Source: Methanobacteriota archaeon
GTDB lineage: Archaea; Halobacteriota; Bog-38; Methanoflorentales; Methanoflorentaceae
Reading direction: 5' to 3'
DNA length: 64,000 nucleotides
NCBI GenBank assembly: GCA_963720465.1
Contig: OY970393.1
Coordinates: 768,001 to 832,000 of the forward strand
Shown: positions 3,058 to 60,836 of the stretch, one piece after another
Numbering within the stretch: the stretch's first letter is position 1
How the letters are laid out: every line of letters begins with the position of its first letter
Position numbers and translations under genes: made by a program
The notes under the pieces: model-generated
Told to the model about the DNA's origin: nothing
Databases searched by the model: none
The model's input: only the letters and a program-made list of their open reading frames with translations

Positions 3058-3462
3058 TTGAGCAGACAATACGCGGCTGCAACAACAGAGGCGCAGAAAT
3101 CCATGATATTGGCGGCATGGCAGGCAATACTTGTTAATACGAACCAACGTGCTGCTGGCGGTTTCAATCTGGGGTTCTTTTTAATCTCTGTAGGTGGTCT
3201 CTTAGTCTCAGCTGTCATGTTGCGCAGCAATATCTTTAGCAAAGCAACAGCATATGTGGGAATTCTAGCTTTTGCAATCTCATTATCCGATTACGTCAGA
3301 ATAATTGTTGCACCATCGGCGCTCACCCTCACCCTCGTCATCGCCCTCGCATCCGCCGTATTTTTGATTATCTGGTTGATCTTAGTTGGCCGAAAGCTAC
3401 TCCAGATAGGCGAGCCATCTCGAAAGAACGGGCGCTTTAGTTTACAGATCAGACCACTTTAA
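3058..3462 (+). pseudogene. C-terminal fragment of a DUF4386-like membrane protein
   Basis: Three hydrophobic helices, VMLRSNIFSKATAYVGI motif, no clear N-terminus. Confidence 0.55.
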
Positions 3463-20626: not shown

Positions 20627-22024
20627 CTATCGTTTTCTCATGAGAATGTATATTGCTCCCACTACAAGCGCTGGTATGCCTAAGCCTAGGAGCGAGAACT
20701 CACCGACGGGCTGGGGCGGCAAACTCGCCACGCTACTCGTCTGTGCGCTCGCCTGTTCTGTCGGCACTGCAATTCCAGGCACCGAGGCATTCGTCGTGTC
20801 AGTTGTCACGGGAGCAAGCTGTGTTGCCTGTGGACTTGGCGTTGAAGCTGCTGTTACGACAGTTGGCTTTGCGGTTGCTGTTACGACCGTTGGCTTTGCG
20901 GTTGCTTTTACGACCGTTGGCTTTGCGGTTGCTACGACCGTTGGCTTTGCGGTTGCTTTTACGACCGTTGGCTTTGCGGTTGCTACGACCGTTGGCTTTG
21001 CGGTTGCTGTTACGACCGTTGGCTTTGCGGTTGCTACGACCGTTGGCTTTGCGGTTGCTTTTACGACCGTCGACTTTGCGGTTGCTGTTACGACAGTTGG
21101 CTTTGTGGTGGGAGTCTTTGCAACGAGCTTCTGCGTTGGCGTGGGCGTCACCTTAGGTGCGGGTGTAGCAGTCGGCTTGATGGTCGGCGTCGCGGTTGTC
21201 CATGCCAGTTTATCGGTGTTCCAGCTTCCACCACTGCTAAAATCAACGATCGAATTGTATTGCCGGTATACAAAGAAGCCGCCGTTGAGCCAGGCAGTCT
21301 TGACTGATGCGATGCTGTTCCCGTCTGAAGCCGTATTTCCGAGGTTCGCGCCGCCTACTGCGTCGTTGTACCACGATCCGGTTCCGCTAAGCGCGCCGCC
21401 AGTCTCGTCCCAATGGGTTTGATGCACAGGGGCGTTTCCGTCCTCACCGATCCAGACCGTCGGATATGGTTCGTGTCCCGGCCCTGCACTGGTGTCCCAC
21501 GAAATTTGAACGTAATAATTGTGGCCTGCGCGGAGTACGGTATCAGTTGGGATGTACCACCGCGCCCCGCTGCCGCCGGTCGTGGCGCGGTAGATCGTCA
21601 GTTCGCTGTGGCTGGCGCCGTAGTTGGTGTCAATTTCAATCATGAAACCGCCATACGCTTTGTCCCAAATTTTCTGGAAGCGCTGGCCGGGTACTACTCC
21701 GGCGAAATGAAACCCTATCTCCCACGAAACGACGTTCTGGTTGTTGGTTGCGGTGCCCGCCGGGATGCCGATAAAATCATTTTGCCCGATGGTACCCCAA
21801 TATGGGTAGCCGTTTGATTGGGTCTGAAATAAGCTGGGGGTGCTGACGTACGCGTTATAGCTGGTTCCTGCCGTTCCCTGGTTGACCCACGTTGATCCCG
21901 CTTGGGGGACGTAATATATCGTGGGGCTAGGCTGTGCTGCCACTAGGGTGGTTGTAACGCCTGTAAATAATACAGTAATGAGGAGGGTGACTACACAAAT
22001 TGAAACGATATTGTGTGCGCGCAT
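20627..22024 (-). CDS. secreted surface protein: beta-sandwich (LamG-like) domain, Thr/Ala/Lys/Pro repeat stalk, C-terminal membrane anchor
   Basis: Signal peptide; Trp/Tyr/Gly-rich domain; TAKPTVV repeats; VGEF-TM-RKR tail resembling archaeosortase PEF-CTERM. Confidence 0.8.
   Translation of the reverse strand: MRAHNIVSICVVTLLITVLFTGVTTTLVAAQPSPTIYYVPQAGSTWVNQGTAGTSYNAYVSTPSLFQTQSNGYPYWGTIGQNDFIGIPAGTATNNQNVVSWEIGFHFAGVVPGQRFQKIWDKAYGGFMIEIDTNYGASHSELTIYRATTGGSGARWYIPTDTVLRAGHNYYVQISWDTSAGPGHEPYPTVWIGEDGNAPVHQTHWDETGGALSGTGSWYNDAVGGANLGNTASDGNSIASVKTAWLNGGFFVYRQYNSIVDFSSGGSWNTDKLAWTTATPTIKPTATPAPKVTPTPTQKLVAKTPTTKPTVVTATAKSTVVKATAKPTVVATAKPTVVTATAKPTVVATAKPTVVKATAKPTVVATAKPTVVKATAKPTVVTATAKPTVVTAASTPSPQATQLAPVTTDTTNASVPGIAVPTEQASAQTSSVASLPPQPVGEFSLLGLGIPALVVGAIYILMRKR
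20850..21105. repeat. 24/27-bp tandem repeats encoding (T/K)ATAKPTVV, about 10 copies
   Basis: Repeated ACGACCGTTGGCTTTGCGGTTGCT units. Confidence 0.95.
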
Positions 22025-40013: not shown

Positions 40014-40574
40014 ATGGTTGAACCGCGGGACACTATTAAAATTGTGAATGTGGTTGCATCCACCGGCATCGGACAAGAAATAGACCTCAAGCAAGTAACG
40101 CATGGGTTAGAAGGCGCAGATTATGATCCTAAACGGTTTCCGGGCGTCGTTTACCGCACAAAGGACCCGAAGACCGCTGCGTTACTCTTTCGGTCAGGAA
40201 AAATTGTCTGTACGGGTGCGAAGAGCATCGATGAGGCTCATGAAGGCATTAAAAACGTATTTCAAAGTCTACGAAATATCGGAATCGACGTGAAGGGAAC
40301 GCCGGAGATCACGGTTCAAAACATCGTCGCGTCAGCAGATCTGCACTCAGCTTTGAATTTGAACGCAATTGCCAACGGTCTGGGGCTTGAGAACATTGAG
40401 TACGAACCCGAACAGTTTCCAGGCCTCGTCTACCGGGTATCGGATCCTAAAGTGGTGATTCTTCTCTTTGGTTCCGGCAAACTTGTTATCACCGGCGGGA
40501 AAAAACCCGAAGATATGGTCAGCGCGGTCGATCGAATCGTTACGGAGCTTAAAAGCTTAAGCTTTCTTCGCTGA
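40014..40574 (+). CDS. tbp: TATA-box-binding protein
   Basis: Two repeats: NVVAS..YDPKRFPG..FRSGKIVCTG and NIVAS..YEPEQFPGL..FGSGKLVITG; TTTATAAA promoter upstream. Confidence 0.97.
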   Translation: MVEPRDTIKIVNVVASTGIGQEIDLKQVTHGLEGADYDPKRFPGVVYRTKDPKTAALLFRSGKIVCTGAKSIDEAHEGIKNVFQSLRNIGIDVKGTPEITVQNIVASADLHSALNLNAIANGLGLENIEYEPEQFPGLVYRVSDPKVVILLFGSGKLVITGGKKPEDMVSAVDRIVTELKSLSFLR

Positions 40575-50999: not shown

Positions 51000-51608
51000 T
51001 TACGAATTTTCTCGGCCGCCGGTTTCCCTTGTTGTGCGGTTGGTCTTCGGATCTATCGCAAGCGCCTTGTCAAAACACTGAAGCGCCTCTTCGTGGCGGT
51101 CTAACATGTCAAGCGCGTCTCCTTTGTAGTTCCACGCGTCAACATCCTGCGGGTTTATCGCGAGCGCCTTGTCGAAGCACAGAAGCGCCTCTTGGTGGCG
51201 GTCTACTTTCACAAGCGCAGTTCCTTTGTCGTTCCACGCCTTAGCATACCGCGGGTCGAGCTCGAGCACCTTATCGAGGCACTGAAGCGCCTCTTCGTGG
51301 CGGTCTAACATCCCAAGCGTAGCTCCTTTCAGAGCCCACGCCTTAGCATCCTTCGGATCGATCTCGAGCGCCTTGTCGAGACACTGAAGTGCTTCTTCGT
51401 GGCGGTCTAACATCCCAAGCGTAGCTCCTTTCAGAGTCCACGCTAAAGCATATTGCGGATCTATCGCAAGCGCCTTGTCGAAGCACAGAAGCGCCTCTGG
51501 GTGGCGACCTGACTTTGCAAGTGCATCTCCTTTGTCACACCATTCCTTCGCTGTCAACTCTTTCTGCGTTGGGGCAGTGCTCGACTTGAACCTGTCAAAT
51601 AATCCCAT
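51000..51608 (-). CDS. tetratricopeptide repeat protein
   Basis: Five 34-aa repeats (AW..KG..L..LDRHEEALQCFDKALAIDP) with 102-bp DNA periodicity; start MGLFDRFK. Confidence 0.93.
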   Translation of the reverse strand: MGLFDRFKSSTAPTQKELTAKEWCDKGDALAKSGRHPEALLCFDKALAIDPQYALAWTLKGATLGMLDRHEEALQCLDKALEIDPKDAKAWALKGATLGMLDRHEEALQCLDKVLELDPRYAKAWNDKGTALVKVDRHQEALLCFDKALAINPQDVDAWNYKGDALDMLDRHEEALQCFDKALAIDPKTNRTTRETGGRENS

Positions 51609-51939
51609 GTTGGTCGCCCAGTACATCCACGCAGGCATATTTATAATTCCTCTTTGAATTGGCAACACTGGTAGCTCACTTGCCCTCTCGGCGGATCCTT
51701 TAGCTGCTTCGCTGGGCATAAGAGAGCTTGCGCTTGTTTTCGGTCGTCCGAAGCCCAAAAAATAAGATAGATTAAGAAGTTAGGGAGTTATCAGAAACTA
51801 CCTTAGCGTGCTCGTGGCGGCTTTAGTCATTTCTCAAATCGATCATTCGTAAACAGAAACGTCCTCACGTTTACGCTCCATTATATGCTTTCGTCTAGCG
51901 CACTGGCAGCCTAATCCCGAGGGGGTCGACTTGAACCAC

Positions 51940-52011
51940 ATCAGTACAGTATCTCTTCAGGAGAAGCAACACGACAAGGGTGATTACGCTAGAGGAGTAT
52001 TTTCAGGAAGG
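51940..52011 (+). promoter_or_regulatory. CRISPR leader-like sequence A
   Basis: 52/64 identity to 55547-55610; abuts a 37-nt repeat. Confidence 0.8.
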
Positions 52012-52493
52012 GTTGCTGAGCAACATCCACTAAAACAACGATTGAAACTTGAGGGAGACAAGGCGCACATTCTACGATTAGTAAAAGACTCTGGAATGTG
52101 GGCTCTTGAACTTGTGAGACAGGAGATACTTATATTTCGTCAACGAAGGATTAAATGCCGACGATCAATACAAAAAGTTGTGGGCAATGAGCCCTGGTTT
52201 AAAAAAGGCAACGCAATAAGACCTTGACAAATCGAAGAAGTAATAGCTGACTGTTACAAGCACTGCTGATTATGAAAGGTGAATAAATGAAAGAGAGGTT
52301 ATTAGAGGTTCTTGAATTGCTCGACCATGAGAAGGAAGACCTAGACCAACTTTGTACAGACGTTTCGTTCCCTGAAACGACGCTGGCACGTTCTGCTGCG
52401 ATGACCAATAGACGGGTGCGAGAGATCGTAGAAGAAGTTCTTGAAGGTATTGAGAATGAGTGAATAAATGTAGCGATGCTGCAAAGCAATATC
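52012..52493 (+). CRISPR. degenerate mini-array A: repeat (52012-52048), 429-bp insert, 5' half-repeat (52478-52493)
   Basis: GTTGCTGAGCAACATCCACTAAAACAACGATTGAAAC; GCTGCAAAGCAATATC matches 14/16 to 56088-56103. Confidence 0.75.
52287..52463 (+). CDS. small acidic protein (58 aa) inside CRISPR insert A
   Basis: MKERLLEVLELLDHEKEDLDQLCTDVSFPETTLARSAAMTNRRVREIVEEVLEGIENE*; AGGTGA RBS and TAAATG coupling. Confidence 0.7.
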   Translation: MKERLLEVLELLDHEKEDLDQLCTDVSFPETTLARSAAMTNRRVREIVEEVLEGIENE

Positions 52494-52513
52494 GTGGTTG
52501 TTTACGAGAAAAC

Positions 52514-52539
52514 GAGCAGTTGCGCTTATTTTAGTCAGC
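52514..52539 (-). repeat. dispersed site, copy 1 (inverted relative to copies 2 and 3)
   Basis: GAGCAGTTGCGCTTATTTT is the exact reverse complement of 61347-61365. Confidence 0.85.
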
Positions 52540-52917
52540 ACACCTTCACCATTCACCGCCCGGCTAATAACGCTTAGACACGGCAGGCAACGCACAACCG
52601 TCAATCTGCCGCGCGGCGCGGACGGCGATAATACTCGCAGCGCGGGATGCGCTCATCATCGCCACGAAGCTTATGCCGACGAATTTGACGCACCTACGAC
52701 AGTCAATCATTGACGGCTAGTTTGATTCGCCCGTTGCATTCGTTACTATGTCCAGAGAAACTAATGATAGCTACGACTGCTTATACCGAGATTATGCCAA
52801 AAAACCACAGGCGTAGGTGCGGCTCCATTTCAGTGAGCGAATAGCAGCCGGAGGCGTTGATCTTTGCGGTCGCCTCATGCTATGTGCACAAACAACGCCC
52901 TCGCTCGCGTTTCTGGG

Positions 52918-54163
52918 CTAATTAACGGTGATCGTCAGGGCTGCGCTCGTCGATGCCTTGTACCACGTGTCACCGGTGAAGGTGGCGTAGTATAGACGTT
53001 TGCCGGGTGATGTCCACTTCTGTGTGAACGTGACCTTGCCGCTCGCGTTCGTCGTTTTCGTCACAACGTTGTAGCGGACGCCGTTAAGGTAGTGGTAGAT
53101 AGTGACTGACTCCGACGATAAGGGCGTCGTGCTCCCCCTGAGGCTGGCGGTGAAGGTGACCCGCTGATTGACAGTGGCGGTGGTGGTGGATGGGGTGAGG
53201 GTCAGCGCGGTGGGAAGTCTGGATGACGTTTGCGCTAGGGATGACGTTTGTGCTGAACTAGTTGGTGGATACTCAACCTGTAGATTTGCGACTATCTGTG
53301 GGAATCCTAGGTGCTCATAGTCGCTGAGCACGTGGGAATCCTGGCTACACCACACGCAAAACTGCGTGAAGCCGACCCCATTTGCGTAGGACCAGTCGAG
53401 CATTGACTTATAACTGGGCGAGCCGCCGCTTAGGGAGTTTGCGAGAACCGGGTTGTCGCCCCCGCTGTTGGCCCACAGGCCTGCCATGATGCCGTTCTGG
53501 ATGCCACGCGCAGCGGCCTGTGTTACTCCCTGTTGAACAGAGGACCACTCCGGCGTATAGTAGCTCTCCCAGCTGTTGATGACAGTGAATGGGTTCTTGT
53601 ACACGTCGAGCCAAAGGCCGCACTGGTCGCAATTGTAGTTTACGTATCCCTTGAAAAACTGCTTCATGTAACGTAAGATCACCCGGTCTGCCCCCTTCGG
53701 AGGCAACATATTGCCACCCGGCGTTTTTGAGTGATTGAAAGTAGGGACCGAAACTGGTTATGGGGGTGCTCTGAAGTCGTCCTCCGCTCCAAATGACCGC
53801 TTCAACATCAATAACCGGCTGCATGCCAAGCGCTTTGATCGTATTGAGCTCGGTCTGGTATGTTCCGCTATCTGGAGCTATAAGTTCCACGGTGGAGAAC
53901 CCGTGTGCCTTAAAATAGGCAAGTGAGCCAGAGTCTATCATCGATGGCGGACCCGCGATAGCGTACCCTATCGGGTGCGTCGCGGCTCCTACCGCAGGGC
54001 TCACGTTAGTTGCGCTTGACGCTGGACTCGCGGCATTTACCGTCGCTGCCGTGAGAGAGAACAAAACCGTAGCCAGAACTAAAAGAGTCATGAATTTTCC
54101 AGCACGCTGACTCCGACTGTGCGTGCGGATGCCCGTTTTTCTATGTAGGACTAACTTGTTCAT
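52918..54163 (-). pseudogene. secreted glycoside-hydrolase-like protein with C-terminal Ig-like domain, +1 frameshift near 53670
   Basis: Signal peptide and N-terminal half in ORF 53408-54196; the rest in ORF 52918-53709; one extra base at GATCTTACG-T-TACATG. Confidence 0.75.
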
Positions 54164-54289
54164 GGGTATCTCTTGCGAAAGAAGCTGCATCTGCAAATGA
54201 GGCGCTTATAATGGATATGACTAAAGAAAATGGGACGATTTTGTATGCGCGCATAACTTTCTCGCAAGAGCTTAGACACTAGGCACCTA

Positions 54290-54622: not shown

Positions 54623-55357
54623 ATGGATGAAACTTTCGGAATGCCGATGCAATCAGCGCTGCTGACAATCGACTACAAACCGTGCGGCGCCGACGTACCG
54701 TCCAACCTGCAAGATGGTGCGCATAGTAGCTTCGTCGATAAAAACCGCTTAAACGAAGAAGATCTGCTCATTGTCGTCATGAGTCTCTTGCGGCCGGTTA
54801 CCTATGCGCGCCAAGAAACCGTGTTTGGAGAGAACAAAGAGAGAAATTGGCGCGCCTGCTTTGCTGTAGATGGGCTAACTCACGGGGGGTTTGTCGAAGG
54901 TTTTCGTGTCCTTCAATTCCTAGGAACGGTTATTAACTACTTCAGCGACGCTACCGTTATGAACTTGACTGGCCCCACGCCCGCAAAAGAACACAGAGTA
55001 AAGGATTGGGCCCTTTTCCTCGGCGACAACAATATACTATTCTCTCCTTTCGGTACTTTTGGGGTTGTTGACCATCGGCCGTATCATGACTCAATTTTTT
55101 GCACAATAGAGTTTTACACCGAACGACGACCAAACGAACTGGCGCGTTTTATCCTCGACTGGTTAAAGCCAGGCGTTGGAGAGGGGTGGGTGGCGTTCGA
55201 TTGCCTGACACCTGACGATGAAGTAAAAGCGCGGGAAAGGGTTGAGCAATTAGATCGACAGCTCGCGAGTTTGGGTTATAAGAGCATGACTTTTGATACG
55301 GAGACGCGCAACTTATGGCTGGAAAGAAAACGAGGCAACAAGCACGGGACGAAATAA
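54623..55357 (+). CDS. hypothetical protein (true start may be ATG 54779)
   Basis: Long ORF with protein-like composition. Confidence 0.65.
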   Translation: MDETFGMPMQSALLTIDYKPCGADVPSNLQDGAHSSFVDKNRLNEEDLLIVVMSLLRPVTYARQETVFGENKERNWRACFAVDGLTHGGFVEGFRVLQFLGTVINYFSDATVMNLTGPTPAKEHRVKDWALFLGDNNILFSPFGTFGVVDHRPYHDSIFCTIEFYTERRPNELARFILDWLKPGVGEGWVAFDCLTPDDEVKARERVEQLDRQLASLGYKSMTFDTETRNLWLERKRGNKHGTK

Positions 55358-55546
55358 GCAGCACGACCCCCAAGCGAACACGCGCCACGACAGCATCCAG
55401 CAGCAGCGACAGTCATTTTGTTGATAGTGACATACGACATCAGCTTTGATGGCGCCGCACCGGGCAGCTCCCATCACCCCGGGACGATTTTTGTATGCGT
55501 GGGAGATTGCCTCAGGCAAGTCCTCAAACGCCGAAGAACGTGTCTT

Positions 55547-55619
55547 ATCAATATGGTATCTCTTCTGCAACAGCAACATGACAAGGGTTATGACGCTAAA
55601 GGGGTATTTTGACGGTGGG
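55547..55619 (+). promoter_or_regulatory. CRISPR leader-like sequence B with BRE/TATA-like GACAAGGGTTATGA
   Basis: Homologous to leader A; TTATGA at 55588-55593, about 27-32 nt before the repeat. Confidence 0.8.
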
Positions 55620-56107
55620 GTTGCAGAGCAACATCCACAAAAACAAGAATTGAAACCGAGCGAGATAAAAAACATAAGGGTGGTTCGACAGCTGTGACGG
55701 AAGCAATAGATTGGTTTAAGGTTAGGATGTGGGAGCTAAAGAAGCTGCTTCGTGGTTCCGAATACAATACCGTGCACGACGAGTTTGGGGGCGAAGTTAT
55801 CGCTGACCTCACCGAATGGCTTAAGATGAAAGGAGCAGCGAAGTTCCATAATAACCTCAATCCCGTGGTTGCTATCACAAAGAACGACGATGTGATATTC
55901 CTCCAAGACTTCGAAGAAGCTCCTACAGACCGGAGCAAAGCGATTATTCACCTTGACGGGCTCTATGCGTTTATAAAAGAAAAGGCGTCCGAAGATAGCT
56001 AAATCCACAGTTGTGACGTTGCAAAGCAGCATCCACTGAAACTTCTATTGAAACTGCACTTAGATACAATAACGGCTGGAAAAATAAGTTGCACAGCAAT
56101 ATCCACT
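55620..56107 (+). CRISPR. degenerate mini-array B: repeat (55620-55656), 361-bp insert, repeat (56018-56054), 33-nt spacer, truncated repeat (56088-56107)
   Basis: GTTGCAGAGCAACATCCACAAAAACAAGAATTGAAAC; GTTGCAAAGCAGCATCCACTGAAACTTCTATTGAAAC; GTTGCACAGCAATATCCACT. Confidence 0.85.
55694..56002 (+). CDS. hypothetical acidic protein (102 aa) inside CRISPR insert B
   Basis: The ORF fills the insert; AGGGTGG SD-like sequence before the GTG; the frame is also open back to the repeat. Confidence 0.7.
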   Translation: MTEAIDWFKVRMWELKKLLRGSEYNTVHDEFGGEVIADLTEWLKMKGAAKFHNNLNPVVAITKNDDVIFLQDFEEAPTDRSKAIIHLDGLYAFIKEKASEDS

Positions 56108-56456
56108 TTTTCATATTCGTGCCCCTCGTGAAATGCAGATTGCCTGAAGACCCCTATTTGACGTGAAATGCCGCTGACATCATCACGCTTTTGTAGCGGC
56201 TTAAAAAATCAAAGGAAATCGAAAAAAGAAAGACCTATTGAGCTCTGAGAGGCAAAAGGGTATATCTGCTGGGCGCTGTGGAATTGTCAAGAGGAACGTG
56301 CCGTGCTATCCTTCGATGACCTCTGCCGACGTTGCCGACTCATTAACGACCAGCCAGCAGCTTTGTAGCACATCATCGGGCGTAAGTGAACGCCCCCGAG
56401 TTTTCCGCTACGAAAGTTTATCGGTGAGCAATGTAAAACTGATATGAGGATATAAC

Positions 56457-59658: not shown

Positions 59659-59943
59659 ATGACTGATAGAGAAGAGTTTATCTTGAGCGAACTCGAGCGG
59701 CTCCAGCGTGAGATCGACGTGCTGAAGGAAGTGTACGCGCATTCTTTGAAAGAGAGACTGAAGCGCGAGGAACTGGTCGAGGATGCAATGATGCGTGCTG
59801 TGGTGGAGGAAGTAACAGAGACAAATAGCGAGCAATTAGAGGAGGATATCACGCACTCAAAGGGGGCAGTAGAGAAGATTGAGGAGCTTGAGGTGAAGAT
59901 TGAGGAGCTTGAGGTGAAGATTGAGGAGCTTGAGGAGATATAA
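59659..59943 (+). CDS. acidic coiled-coil protein
   Basis: Glu-rich heptads ending in KIEELEV x3. Confidence 0.65.
   Translation: MTDREEFILSELERLQREIDVLKEVYAHSLKERLKREELVEDAMMRAVVEEVTETNSEQLEEDITHSKGAVEKIEELEVKIEELEVKIEELEEI
59874..59935. repeat. 21-bp tandem repeat x3
   Basis: GAAGATTGAGGAGCTTGAGGT. Confidence 0.95.
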
Positions 59944-60263
59944 ACAACGGCCGGGCCACCTATGACTGAGAGTTAACGCCTCTTTCTTTTTTCCGTGGTT
60001 CCTTTTCCCAGAGTTTGAATGGCGTAGAGCCTTCACGTTATAGAGAGACCGGCGGCTCCTATTCTCTAAAACTTCAGAAAGTTGAGTATGCAGGAGGATC
60101 AATTTGCGTGGGTTTACGGCCGCCATATCTCTGTCCACTGTGCAAAAGCAAATCACATTAACGATTGCCCCAATTCTTCTGAGCGATTTTGAATCTGCGA
60201 ACGCAGTCGAGGAACTTTGCAAGCGGCAGCAACTATAAGGCGGTGCGAGTCCATATATAAGTA

Positions 60264-60836
60264 GTGAAGAAAAACAAAGAAGACAAAGCAACGCTGGCGT
60301 ATCTCGAGAAGTTGGTTGGTCAACAGGGGCTTGAAATGATCAAGCGACTTTCAAAAAACGAGTTGACGGACCAGCAGATAGCAGAAGAAACTGGTTCTGA
60401 ACTGAACATTGTGAGGCGGACGCTATTCACTTTGTACGAACATCGCCTCGCCTTCTATACGCTTCAGCGCGACAAAGAAACTGGATGGATGCTGTATCGA
60501 TGGCGCGTAGACTTTGAGGATATTGAGCGCCGCGTCGCTAATGATGCTCAAAAGCTTATCTCAAAGCTCGAGACGTGGCTTGATGGAGAGCTGAACACGG
60601 CCTATTACACTTGTGACAACAACTGCGGCCGCTACACGTTTGACATGGCGAGTGGCTACACGTGTGGATACGAATTTGTGTGCCCTGTGTGCAAGCAACG
60701 CCTCTACTACGACGACACGTCCCAGATGACCGATACTATGCGAGGAAAAATTAGCGAATTAAAGACCGACGTTCAAGCCATTTTCTATCCGGAGAACTCG
60801 TCGATTTTTGAACTTGTCCAGACAGAAGAGGAATAA
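60264..60836 (+). CDS. tfe: transcription factor E (TFE alpha) homolog
   Basis: LTDQQIAEETG..NIVRRTLFTLYE, RDKETGW..Y.W, zinc ribbon C..RYTF..FVCPVC. Confidence 0.9.
   Translation: MKKNKEDKATLAYLEKLVGQQGLEMIKRLSKNELTDQQIAEETGSELNIVRRTLFTLYEHRLAFYTLQRDKETGWMLYRWRVDFEDIERRVANDAQKLISKLETWLDGELNTAYYTCDNNCGRYTFDMASGYTCGYEFVCPVCKQRLYYDDTSQMTDTMRGKISELKTDVQAIFYPENSSIFELVQTEEE

Follow-up and report, generated by a model that had tools for sequence, protein, structure and literature searches.

CRISPR leader-repeat units with small protein genes in the spacer position in a methanogen of the Methanoflorentaceae

[quoted passage not shown] The genome, G000, consists of one contig of 2.31 Mb with a GC content of 51.7%. 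The window carries the genes for TBP and TFIIE-alpha, which are archaeal, and the presence of mcrA in G000 identifies the organism as a methanogen. Unit A, the main subject of this study, is composed of the following features, among them a small open reading frame (ORF), ORF58, preceded by a Shine-Dalgarno sequence (SD):

51940-52011 (+): leader A, a paralogue of a CRISPR leader (78% identity over 73 nt, 51940-52012 against 55547-55619)
52012-52048 (+): R_A, a complete 37-nt CRISPR repeat of the Rfam family RF01320 (CRISPR-DR7) with the 3' end ATTGAAAC
52049-52066 (+): post-repeat stretch and end of a duplicated module, which aligns pairwise with the sequence that follows repeat R1 in unit B
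52127-52493 (+): ORF58 cassette, comprising an upstream region, a micro-ORF, ORF58 and a repeat stub, which recurs as one unit in other genomic contexts of relatives
52155-52190 (+): micro-ORF preceded by the SD-like GAAGGA, with a length of 11 aa here and of 15-30 aa in relatives
52287-52463 (+): ORF58, an acidic protein of 58 aa (pI 4.43), with the SD AAAGGTGAA 5 nt upstream
52478-52493 (+): decayed 5' stub of a terminal CRISPR repeat, identical to 56088-56103 at 14 of 16 positions

We consider it moderately likely that unit A represents an orphan piece of a type I-B-like array, consisting of the leader, one full repeat and a truncated repeat from the trailer end, with the micro-ORF and ORF58 in the spacer slot. 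R_A scores 37.8 bits against RF01320 on the + strand (gathering score 37) and is 90% identical to 55618-55656 and 77% to 56016-56054; an Rfam scan reported nothing beyond R_A and R1. The insert between R_A and the stub spans 429 bp (52049-52477), and within it an upstream frame and ORF58 form a bicistronic layout with overlapping stop and start. A preliminary description of the locus had named the leader, the 37-nt repeat, the 429-bp insert, the 58-aa acidic ORF and the half-repeat with 14 of 16 matching positions, and all of these are found where it had placed them. Having a single full repeat, with the 16-nt stub at a distance of 429 bp, the unit lacks the regular repeat spacing of an array.

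A search with the stub pattern, allowing up to 3 mismatches, resulted in six matches in the window, compared to 0.51 expected, and none of 100 shuffles reached six. One of the six (3219-3234) falls inside an unrelated membrane-protein ORF and is probably due to chance. Relatives hold a clear 5' half of a repeat at the stub position, namely GTTGCAGAGCAACATCCAC in other species and a near-complete repeat in G001:C7. This supports the earlier view that the half-repeat is a genuine repeat remnant, and on these comparisons the stub of unit A is a decayed copy of a repeat 5' half. That it might belong to a conserved unrelated sequence had been named as an objection: it is part of a conserved sequence, yet that sequence is itself derived from a repeat.

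Unit B lies 3.6 kb downstream of unit A and encodes a second acidic protein, ORF102, behind a spacer-length 5' untranslated region (UTR):

55547-55619 (+): leader B, paralogue of leader A
55620-55656 (+): repeat R1 (RF01320, 37.9 bits against the gathering score of 37)
55657-55693 (+): 5' UTR of 37 nt, spacer-length, with the SD AAGGGTGG (mean pairwise identity 0.79 in a 9-genome alignment)
55694-56002 (+): ORF102, acidic, 102 aa, with a GTG start in G000 and ATG in relatives
56018-56054 (+): decayed repeat R2, 7 of 37 positions mismatching a composed genus-type repeat pattern
56055-56087 (+): spacer of 33 nt, alignable in 4 species (G000, G009, G002 and G011)
56088-56106 (+): terminal repeat stub followed by a T5 run
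56107-56229 (+): trailer segment, which also follows the stub of the ORF58 cassette in G014, G001, G002 and G010

The stop codon of ORF58 lies 14 nt before the stub and that of ORF102 15 nt before R2. The similar offset had been put forward as an argument for a mechanism; the distances themselves are confirmed, but they are two cases with unrelated linker sequences and do not permit a weighing of the argument. Regular spacing is restricted to R2, the 33-nt spacer and the stub. This spacer has no target in G000 (best match 25 of 33 at G000:302279), and no 11-mer seed of it was found near the units or the cas locus in a search that used no defined protospacer-adjacent motif; unit A holds no spacer-length element. 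The spacer of unit B, alignable in four species and lacking a target in G000, is therefore regarded as frozen, and the turnover between related strains that is typical of adaptive spacers is not seen.

To place the units in a wider context, we used 40 relatives searched by DNA and a family set of 24 genomes, consisting of 18 of the genus, including G000, and 6 of the sister genus. Most of the genus genomes are bins with a completeness of 59-91%; G000 reaches 91%, G011 is a single contig (90%) and G008 comprises 10 contigs. Eight other genomes of the genus carry unit B (84-88% DNA identity), and the alignment shows the order leader, R1, a 37-nt stretch with an SD, start codon, ORF102, 15 nt and then a repeat or stub. 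The architecture therefore recurs and is kept across the genus, in agreement with the earlier statement that it is no one-off accident. Altogether, 21 ORF102 loci were collected (9 genomes and 12 metagenome contigs, some surely redundant), and all 21 have a full repeat whose end lies 37-38 nt upstream of the ORF102 start. Downstream of ORF102, a full repeat is found in 4 of the 21 loci, only a stub in 12 and nothing recognizable in 5, which is a graded decay series.

The median ratio of nonsynonymous to synonymous substitution rates (dN/dS) of ORF102 is 0.144 (36 pairs, 9 genomes). Its taxonomic range is narrow: 9 of 18 genus genomes, none of the 6 sister-genus genomes and 9 of 401 phylum genomes, corresponding to one of 121 genera. 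A profile search in 1.84 billion representatives resulted in 13 proteins at E ≤0.001, and a few of them are distant relatives of about 100 aa with 24-45% identity. A search based on a smaller alignment yielded only loci of the genus type among metagenome contigs, and none in genome or viral contigs. A second, decayed ORF102 copy with 43% identity and 4 in-frame stops, a pseudogene paralogue, is located at G002:C91:9123-9511. As judged from sequence comparison and synteny, unit B appears to be the older unit, vertically inherited through the genus.

In contrast to unit B, the full unit A was matched only in G009 (92% identity). The DNA upstream of leader A, with its TPR gene, is also found in G011 and G002, where it continues into only one leader and repeat with ORF102 behind them, indicating that G000 and G009 carry an extra 3.6 kb. 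This DNA comprises the cargo of unit A, a glycosidase-like gene with a Big_3_5 domain, an orphan ORF of 244 aa and the second leader and repeat. The duplicated leader-repeat module ends about 18 nt past the repeat, and past ~52066 pairwise comparison detects no significant similarity of unit A to unit B. Leaders A and B are identical at 0.82 of positions, compared to 0.81 (A) and 0.76 (B) towards the leader of G011; between G000 and G009, leader A is 0.95 and leader B 0.86 identical. Based on the identities between A and B and between G000 and G009, the duplication is not recent. Unit A thus would be a lineage-specific paralogue, restricted to G000 and G009, younger than unit B and with borrowed cargo, and its earlier designation as independent does not fit a leader and repeat that are paralogous to those of unit B within 3.6 kb. 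An interpretation of 52049-52126 as a remnant of the 5' end of ORF102 was rejected, as the local alignment scores 18, whereas shuffles average 21.2 and 417 of 500 of them reach 18.

The genes around the two leaders are as follows. The TPR gene (51000-51758, -) lies divergently upstream of leader A and contains 4.8 copies of a 102-bp unit (tandem 51048-51537); it also flanks the single leader in G011, G002, G014 and G001. The glycosidase-like gene (52918-54196, -) encodes a secreted protein with the Big_3_5 domain at its C-terminus and is split into two ORFs that overlap, 52918-53709 and 53408-54196. In a relative, RNA-library contigs are shorter by 1 nt at 53672 and by 18 nt at 53222, and in G000 the split gene is therefore either a frameshifted pseudogene or an assembly error. 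The acidic 244-aa ORF (54623-55357, +) lies just upstream of leader B within the 3.6 kb found in G000 and G009 only. It has only 4 protein clusters among 5.8 billion (76-98% identity) and no match in Pfam, PHROGs, PADLOC or NCBIfam.

The cargo of unit A is found independently of the leader in other members of the genus. The cassette (~52127-52493) is present at 82-88% DNA identity in G011, G014, G001, G002, G003, G004, G010, G008 and G012, with different flanks. ORF58 occupies 15 places in 11 of the 18 genus genomes, with 3 in G004, 2 each in G010 and G001 and a single one in G000. In G011, G014, G001 and G002, the cassette adjoins the TBP gene and a TATA-like box lies upstream. At least 4 further contexts exist, and their 5' boundaries differ. 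No leader or repeat was seen in the aligned ~250 nt upstream of the TBP-adjacent copies, and for cassette loci as a whole it is only the repeat scan that reports none, no separate upstream scan of the copies elsewhere having been made. The homologous TBP gene of G000 (40014-40574, +) has a PadR gene in the place where these four relatives carry the cassette, about 105 bp upstream and divergent.

Most cassette copies end in the 5' half of a repeat, and the stub is kept in 4 contexts. The trailer behind the unit B stub of G000 also stands directly behind the cassette stub in G014, G001, G002 and G010; the trailer matches (75-83% identity; L004, L005, L006 and L018) start at the stub (56086-56088) and end at 56170-56229. 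For ORF58 itself, the median dN/dS is 0.20, calculated from 76 of the 78 pairs among 13 copies without the contig-cut L021 and the truncated L023, and it is a real gene under purifying selection. Two copies resemble pseudogenes, namely the truncated one in G004:C113 and the one in G001:C7, which has ATA instead of ATG.

Upstream of ORF58, the frame whose TAA stop precedes the ORF58 ATG spans only 11 open codons in G000, compared to 8-39 in 11 copies from relatives, in line with the degraded reading frame of the preliminary description. The micro-ORF that starts at 52155 encodes 11 aa here and 15-30 aa in 8 relatives' copies; its N-terminus ML/PMI.TKVVGNEPW is kept and its tail varies via indels at a run of A. 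This run (52195-52205) and the homologous sites in L007, L008 and L017 contain 5 to 7 A, which shifts the frame of the micro-ORF and reflects either decay or a slippage-prone sequence. Two further candidates were rejected. A long gene upstream of ORF58 is excluded because an ATG of the 52155 type is open through to the TAA at the ORF58 start in none of the copies, and a structured RNA in the conserved 160 nt upstream of ORF58 found no support (consensus -13.4 kcal/mol, covariation term -0.89, compensatory pairs 1 of 30).

ORF58 and ORF102 are two additional, uncharacterized families of small proteins. The AlphaFold2 model of ORF58 is a two-helix hairpin (pLDDT 90) and matched generic helical hairpins only, while ORF102 was modelled as an alpha/beta protein (pLDDT 81.5) with no fold match in the PDB (best Foldseek E 0.27), in a wide VIA search (best Z 2.9) or in BFVD; a search of the ESM Atlas gave no usable match. 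Neither protein has a match in Pfam, PHROGs, PADLOC or NCBIfam, and 38 protein clusters were found for ORF58. No match was obtained in IMG/VR for ORF102, ORF58 or the distant relatives of ORF102, nor by tblastn with either protein in 50,697 GenBank phage and archaeal-virus records. Compared with anti-CRISPR proteins, both lack a sequence family and ORF102 a fold match, and small size and acidity are not diagnostic.

Complete CRISPR machinery is present in G000 at a distance of 1.26 Mb from units A and B (G000:C1:2072925-2085915; L030, L031), whereas the 40 ORFs of 36259-63179 around the units include no cas family. The order cas8b (TM1802), cas7, cas5, cas3, cas6b, cas1, cas2, cas4, followed by a leader and 59 repeats, classifies this main locus as type I-B, and it is the sole complete one in the genus sample. 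Leaders A and B share the motifs CATCAG.AC, ATGACAAGG and AAAGGAGTATTTT with the leader of the main array and with that of the 16-repeat array of G007. Together with their repeats, they are 0.68 (A) and 0.63 (B) identical to the leader and repeat of the main array. R_A differs from the main-array repeat at 6 of 37 positions; the 3' 18 nt of the array repeat equal those of the orphan repeats except for one base in each, and the 5' part differs. Outside the main array, matches to the leader core and repeat are found genome-wide only in units A and B. One leader thus heads a normal array and two head gene-bearing inserts, a mixed answer to the earlier concern that other leader copies might lead to normal arrays or random sequence.

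Spacers of the main array measure 33-39 nt in 55 of 58 cases, and apparent spacers of 65, 83 and 124 nt conceal decayed repeats. None of the 58 spacers matches the units or the fetched loci, and there is one chance-level match of 18 nt elsewhere in the genome.

The cas genes are rare among the relatives. cas6b (PF17262) and cas7 (PF05107) were each detected in 1 of the 24 family genomes and cas1 (PF01867) in 2, the second one in the sister genus. The other 17 genomes of the genus yielded no cas1, cas6b or cas7, although 8 of them keep unit B; one of these is the single-contig G011, where unit B has three good repeats. Similarly, cas2, cas6 (PF01881) and cas8b were found in none of five genomes (G011, G009, G002, G006 and G008), and the cas DNA of G000 has no counterpart in G011, G008 or G009. 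The preliminary description had argued for a mechanism behind the recurrence; in the sense of an active CRISPR process, this is difficult to reconcile with such a distribution. The left flank of the cas genes is syntenic and then passes into multi-copy sequence, as expected of an island. G009, G011 and G008 each hold dozens of copies of sequences from a part of this flank (~4900-8300 of L030), suggestive of an island rich in repeats.

Hints at transcription came from assembled RNA libraries (four runs from four studies), whose contigs are 90-95% alike to the window and, given this level of identity, derive from a relative similar to G009. The region 51940-52559 is fully covered in X1, X2 and X6 and piecewise in X3, where one contig also extends across 55014-55518 and 55617-56199 in the region of unit B. 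These data are Logan assemblies that carry no information about ends, strand or a Cas6 cut site, and gaps in cover are uninformative; the contigs are compatible with transcription, nothing more. A scan for bacterial promoters and terminators is uninformative for an archaeal host. In terms of conservation, the leader reaches a mean pairwise identity of 0.735, the 5' half of R1 0.81, its 3' half 0.91 and third codon positions 0.82. Such values would suit a start site within the repeat that lies downstream of the AAAGGAGTATTTT block.

Based on these results, we favor, at moderate confidence, the idea that the units are fossil mini-arrays whose leader promoter and first repeat now serve small genes, and that the cassettes have been shuffled by recombination between repeats. 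In most lineages, the cas partner of an ancestral type I-B-type array, with a repeat type as in the G007 array, would have disappeared, while the leader, a first repeat and further repeats in decay remained. Dispersed repeats may then have undergone ectopic homologous recombination that moved and re-joined modules, as the shared stubs and the swapped trailer suggest, with the outcome that the leader and repeat were duplicated and the ORF58 cassette was placed behind the copy. According to the anatomy of the units, the leader promoter would transcribe the gene, which the RNA contigs indicate weakly, the 3' part of the repeat and the spacer-length stretch would form the 5' UTR, and the stub with the T-run the 3' end. 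As far as the genome searches show, Cas proteins would not be needed for this in most species. In G000 with its cas6b, the transcript could also be cut 8 nt before the end of the repeat. Repeats acting as recombination joints would explain the cassette stubs in unrelated contexts, the trailer that changes partners and the duplicated leader-repeat that heads ORF58. CRISPR repeats are known as sites of genome rearrangement in Thermotogales and Pyrococcus. Likewise, dispersed repeats seem to have mediated flank swaps and the duplication of a module here, but the result is a kept fusion of promoter and gene and not just an inversion or a loss of spacers.

Several points weigh against this interpretation. 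Leaders A and B are about as similar to each other (0.82) as to the G011 leader (0.81 and 0.76), and their comparison thus does not point to a particular source of the second copy. As the RNA contigs lack ends and strand and carry-over of DNA is possible, leader-driven transcription is only predicted. The leader and the 5' half of R1 are no better kept than third codon positions, and the 3' half, at 0.91, consists of 18 nt, too few sites to weigh selection. cas islands are easily lost from bins, so that the absence of cas rests mainly on the single-contig G011 and the 10-contig G008. Finally, the fixed repeat-to-start distance in 21 of 21 loci, together with two unrelated genes tied to repeats, could mean function and not descent.

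Such a function could lie in a coupling of the units to Cas proteins, in which leader and repeat are kept for the handling of the mRNA by CRISPR proteins. We regard this as unlikely, and the same applies to its details: Cas6b would trim the transcript to an 8-nt handle, loading of Cas5 and Cas7 would cover the SD 20-27 nt into the UTR, and the acidic proteins would be made only when Cascade is missing or blocked, in the manner of an addiction or alarm system, or would be accessory regulators co-expressed with the CRISPR RNA (crRNA). The complete type I-B locus of G000 including cas6b, the scores of R_A and R1 above the CRISPR-DR7 threshold with a kept ATTGAAAC handle, the constant 37-38 nt in all 21 ORF102 loci, the 3' half of R1 as the best-kept non-coding piece and the small size and acidity of both proteins would be in agreement with such a role. 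In addition, CreTA and CreR exert type I-B control via ectopic repeats, according to the accessible portions of PMC10120712. In contrast, cas genes were undetected in 17 of 17 other genus genomes, 8 of which, among them G011, keep unit B, and in such genomes the 5' halves of repeats and the downstream repeats are in decay. The 1.26 Mb between units and cas locus, the spacer of unit B without a target in G000 and the absence of any PADLOC family for ORF58 and ORF102 point in the same direction. On balance, control of the ORF58 and ORF102 mRNAs by Cas proteins in the cas-positive G000 is unlikely, verging on improbable. A more elaborate version appears improbable to us: leader and repeat would have been exapted as portable expression heads, the crRNA-like start of the mRNA would be clipped and coated by Cas6b and Cascade in G000, ORF102 and ORF58 would be translated only if the effector is absent or inhibited, and the cargo would be swapped by repeat recombination. 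If true, it would represent a protein-level, post-transcriptional analogue of CreTA-type guarding.

Alternatively, the ORF58 cassette could be a small selfish or mobile unit, possibly similar to a toxin-antitoxin system composed of a basic micro-peptide and an acidic helical protein; it would spread within genomes and tend to land in remnants of CRISPR repeats or travel with them, with unit A as one of its landing sites. We give this little credence. The 15 places in 11 of 18 genus genomes, at least 6 flanking contexts with varying 5' boundaries, the bicistronic layout with overlapping stop and start and the pseudogene-like copies in G004:C113 and G001:C7 would suit a mobile unit. However, no transposase, integrase or terminal inverted repeats were seen at the cassette contexts, which share no common partner gene, and G000 has a single copy. 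The downstream repeat piece is a 5' half, which fits a following repeat that was truncated later and not an insertion into a repeat. The micro-ORF, with 11-30 aa and variable tails, is not kept intact across copies and ORF58 matches no toxin-antitoxin family, so that the hallmarks of a type II system are lacking.

An origin from a virus or plasmid as a mini-array with cargo (a provirus remnant, a solitary-repeat anti-CRISPR RNA or an array from interviral conflict), to which the preliminary description had leaned with its viral reading of the tight gene coupling, is very improbable: a leader with a single repeat does resemble the solitary repeat units and mini-arrays of viruses (as described in the accessible portions of PMC10651486 and PMC6858448), the GC content of units A and B is 44-46% compared to 51.7% for the genome, and, compared with G011 and G002, unit A together with some 3 kb of additional DNA constitutes an insertion, but there is no match in IMG/VR, the 50,697 phage and archaeal-virus records, PHROGs or BFVD (the latter searched with ORF102), no integrase or capsid gene within 36259-63179, no match to any of the 58 main-array spacers, and unit B is chromosomal, syntenic and vertically inherited.

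The units resemble orphan or degenerate CRISPR arrays: their leader is genuine, their repeat belongs to a known CRISPR family, the terminal repeat has decayed, cas genes do not adjoin them and the spacer is frozen across species. They differ in that their spacer slot holds a protein gene under purifying selection, with 361-429 bp instead of 33-39 nt, and in being kept genus-wide. The survey of Shmakov et al. (2023) defined mini-arrays by repeats 15-60 bp apart and looked for sequences resembling repeats between the genes of cas loci, as stated in the accessible portions of PMC10120712. Known elements with ectopic repeats are CreTA, CreR, other crRNA-like RNAs (crlRNAs), viral mini-arrays and the Racr RNA anti-CRISPRs (accessible portions of PMC10120712, PMC10651486 and PMC6858448). 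Elements of the CreTA/CreR type and crlRNAs resemble the units in having ectopic, degenerate type I-B-like repeats outside immunity; they lie inside cas loci, with two repeats at a distance of 15-60 bp and a partial match of the spacer to a promoter (PMC10120712, same portions). In contrast, the units are 1.26 Mb away from cas, have a true leader and an enclosed protein gene, occur in cas-negative relatives, and no promoter-matching spacer was found. Viral mini-arrays and Racr solitary repeats likewise combine a promoter with a lone repeat, as far as these sources describe them, whereas the units are chromosomal, syntenic and without viral genes, and a coding gene instead of a short RNA follows the repeat. 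In the literature as it was accessible, we found no account in which the spacer slot behind a true leader is occupied by a protein gene kept under selection throughout a genus mostly devoid of cas genes; the supplements of PMC10120712 may list such cases.

A looser echo of the theme of a repeat followed by a gene is found in the sister genus, which could be mere adjacency. In G018 (L028, 1520-2300) and G023 (L029, 1520-2230), GGAGG and an ORF lie 30 nt behind a leader that has 3 repeats in G018 and 2 in G023. The encoded protein is lipoprotein-like with the lipobox LVAGC, and no canonical start codon is in view. TTAGATAAC stands directly after the last repeat and again after the ORF, and a stretch of 45 nt is duplicated at the end of the ORF. 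Elsewhere in the window, tandem repeats are located at 20849-21109 (27-nt unit, 10 copies, within the ORF 20627-22024, -) and at 59874-59938 (21-nt unit, 3 copies, within the ORF 59857-60291, -).

Should Cas6b or Cascade act on the mRNAs of ORF58 and ORF102 in the cas-positive strain, this would be a new tie between host gene expression and CRISPR status. If leader and repeat merely serve as a borrowed promoter and 5' UTR, the units would be a clean example of how dead immune loci are recycled, with their repeats shuffling small genes.

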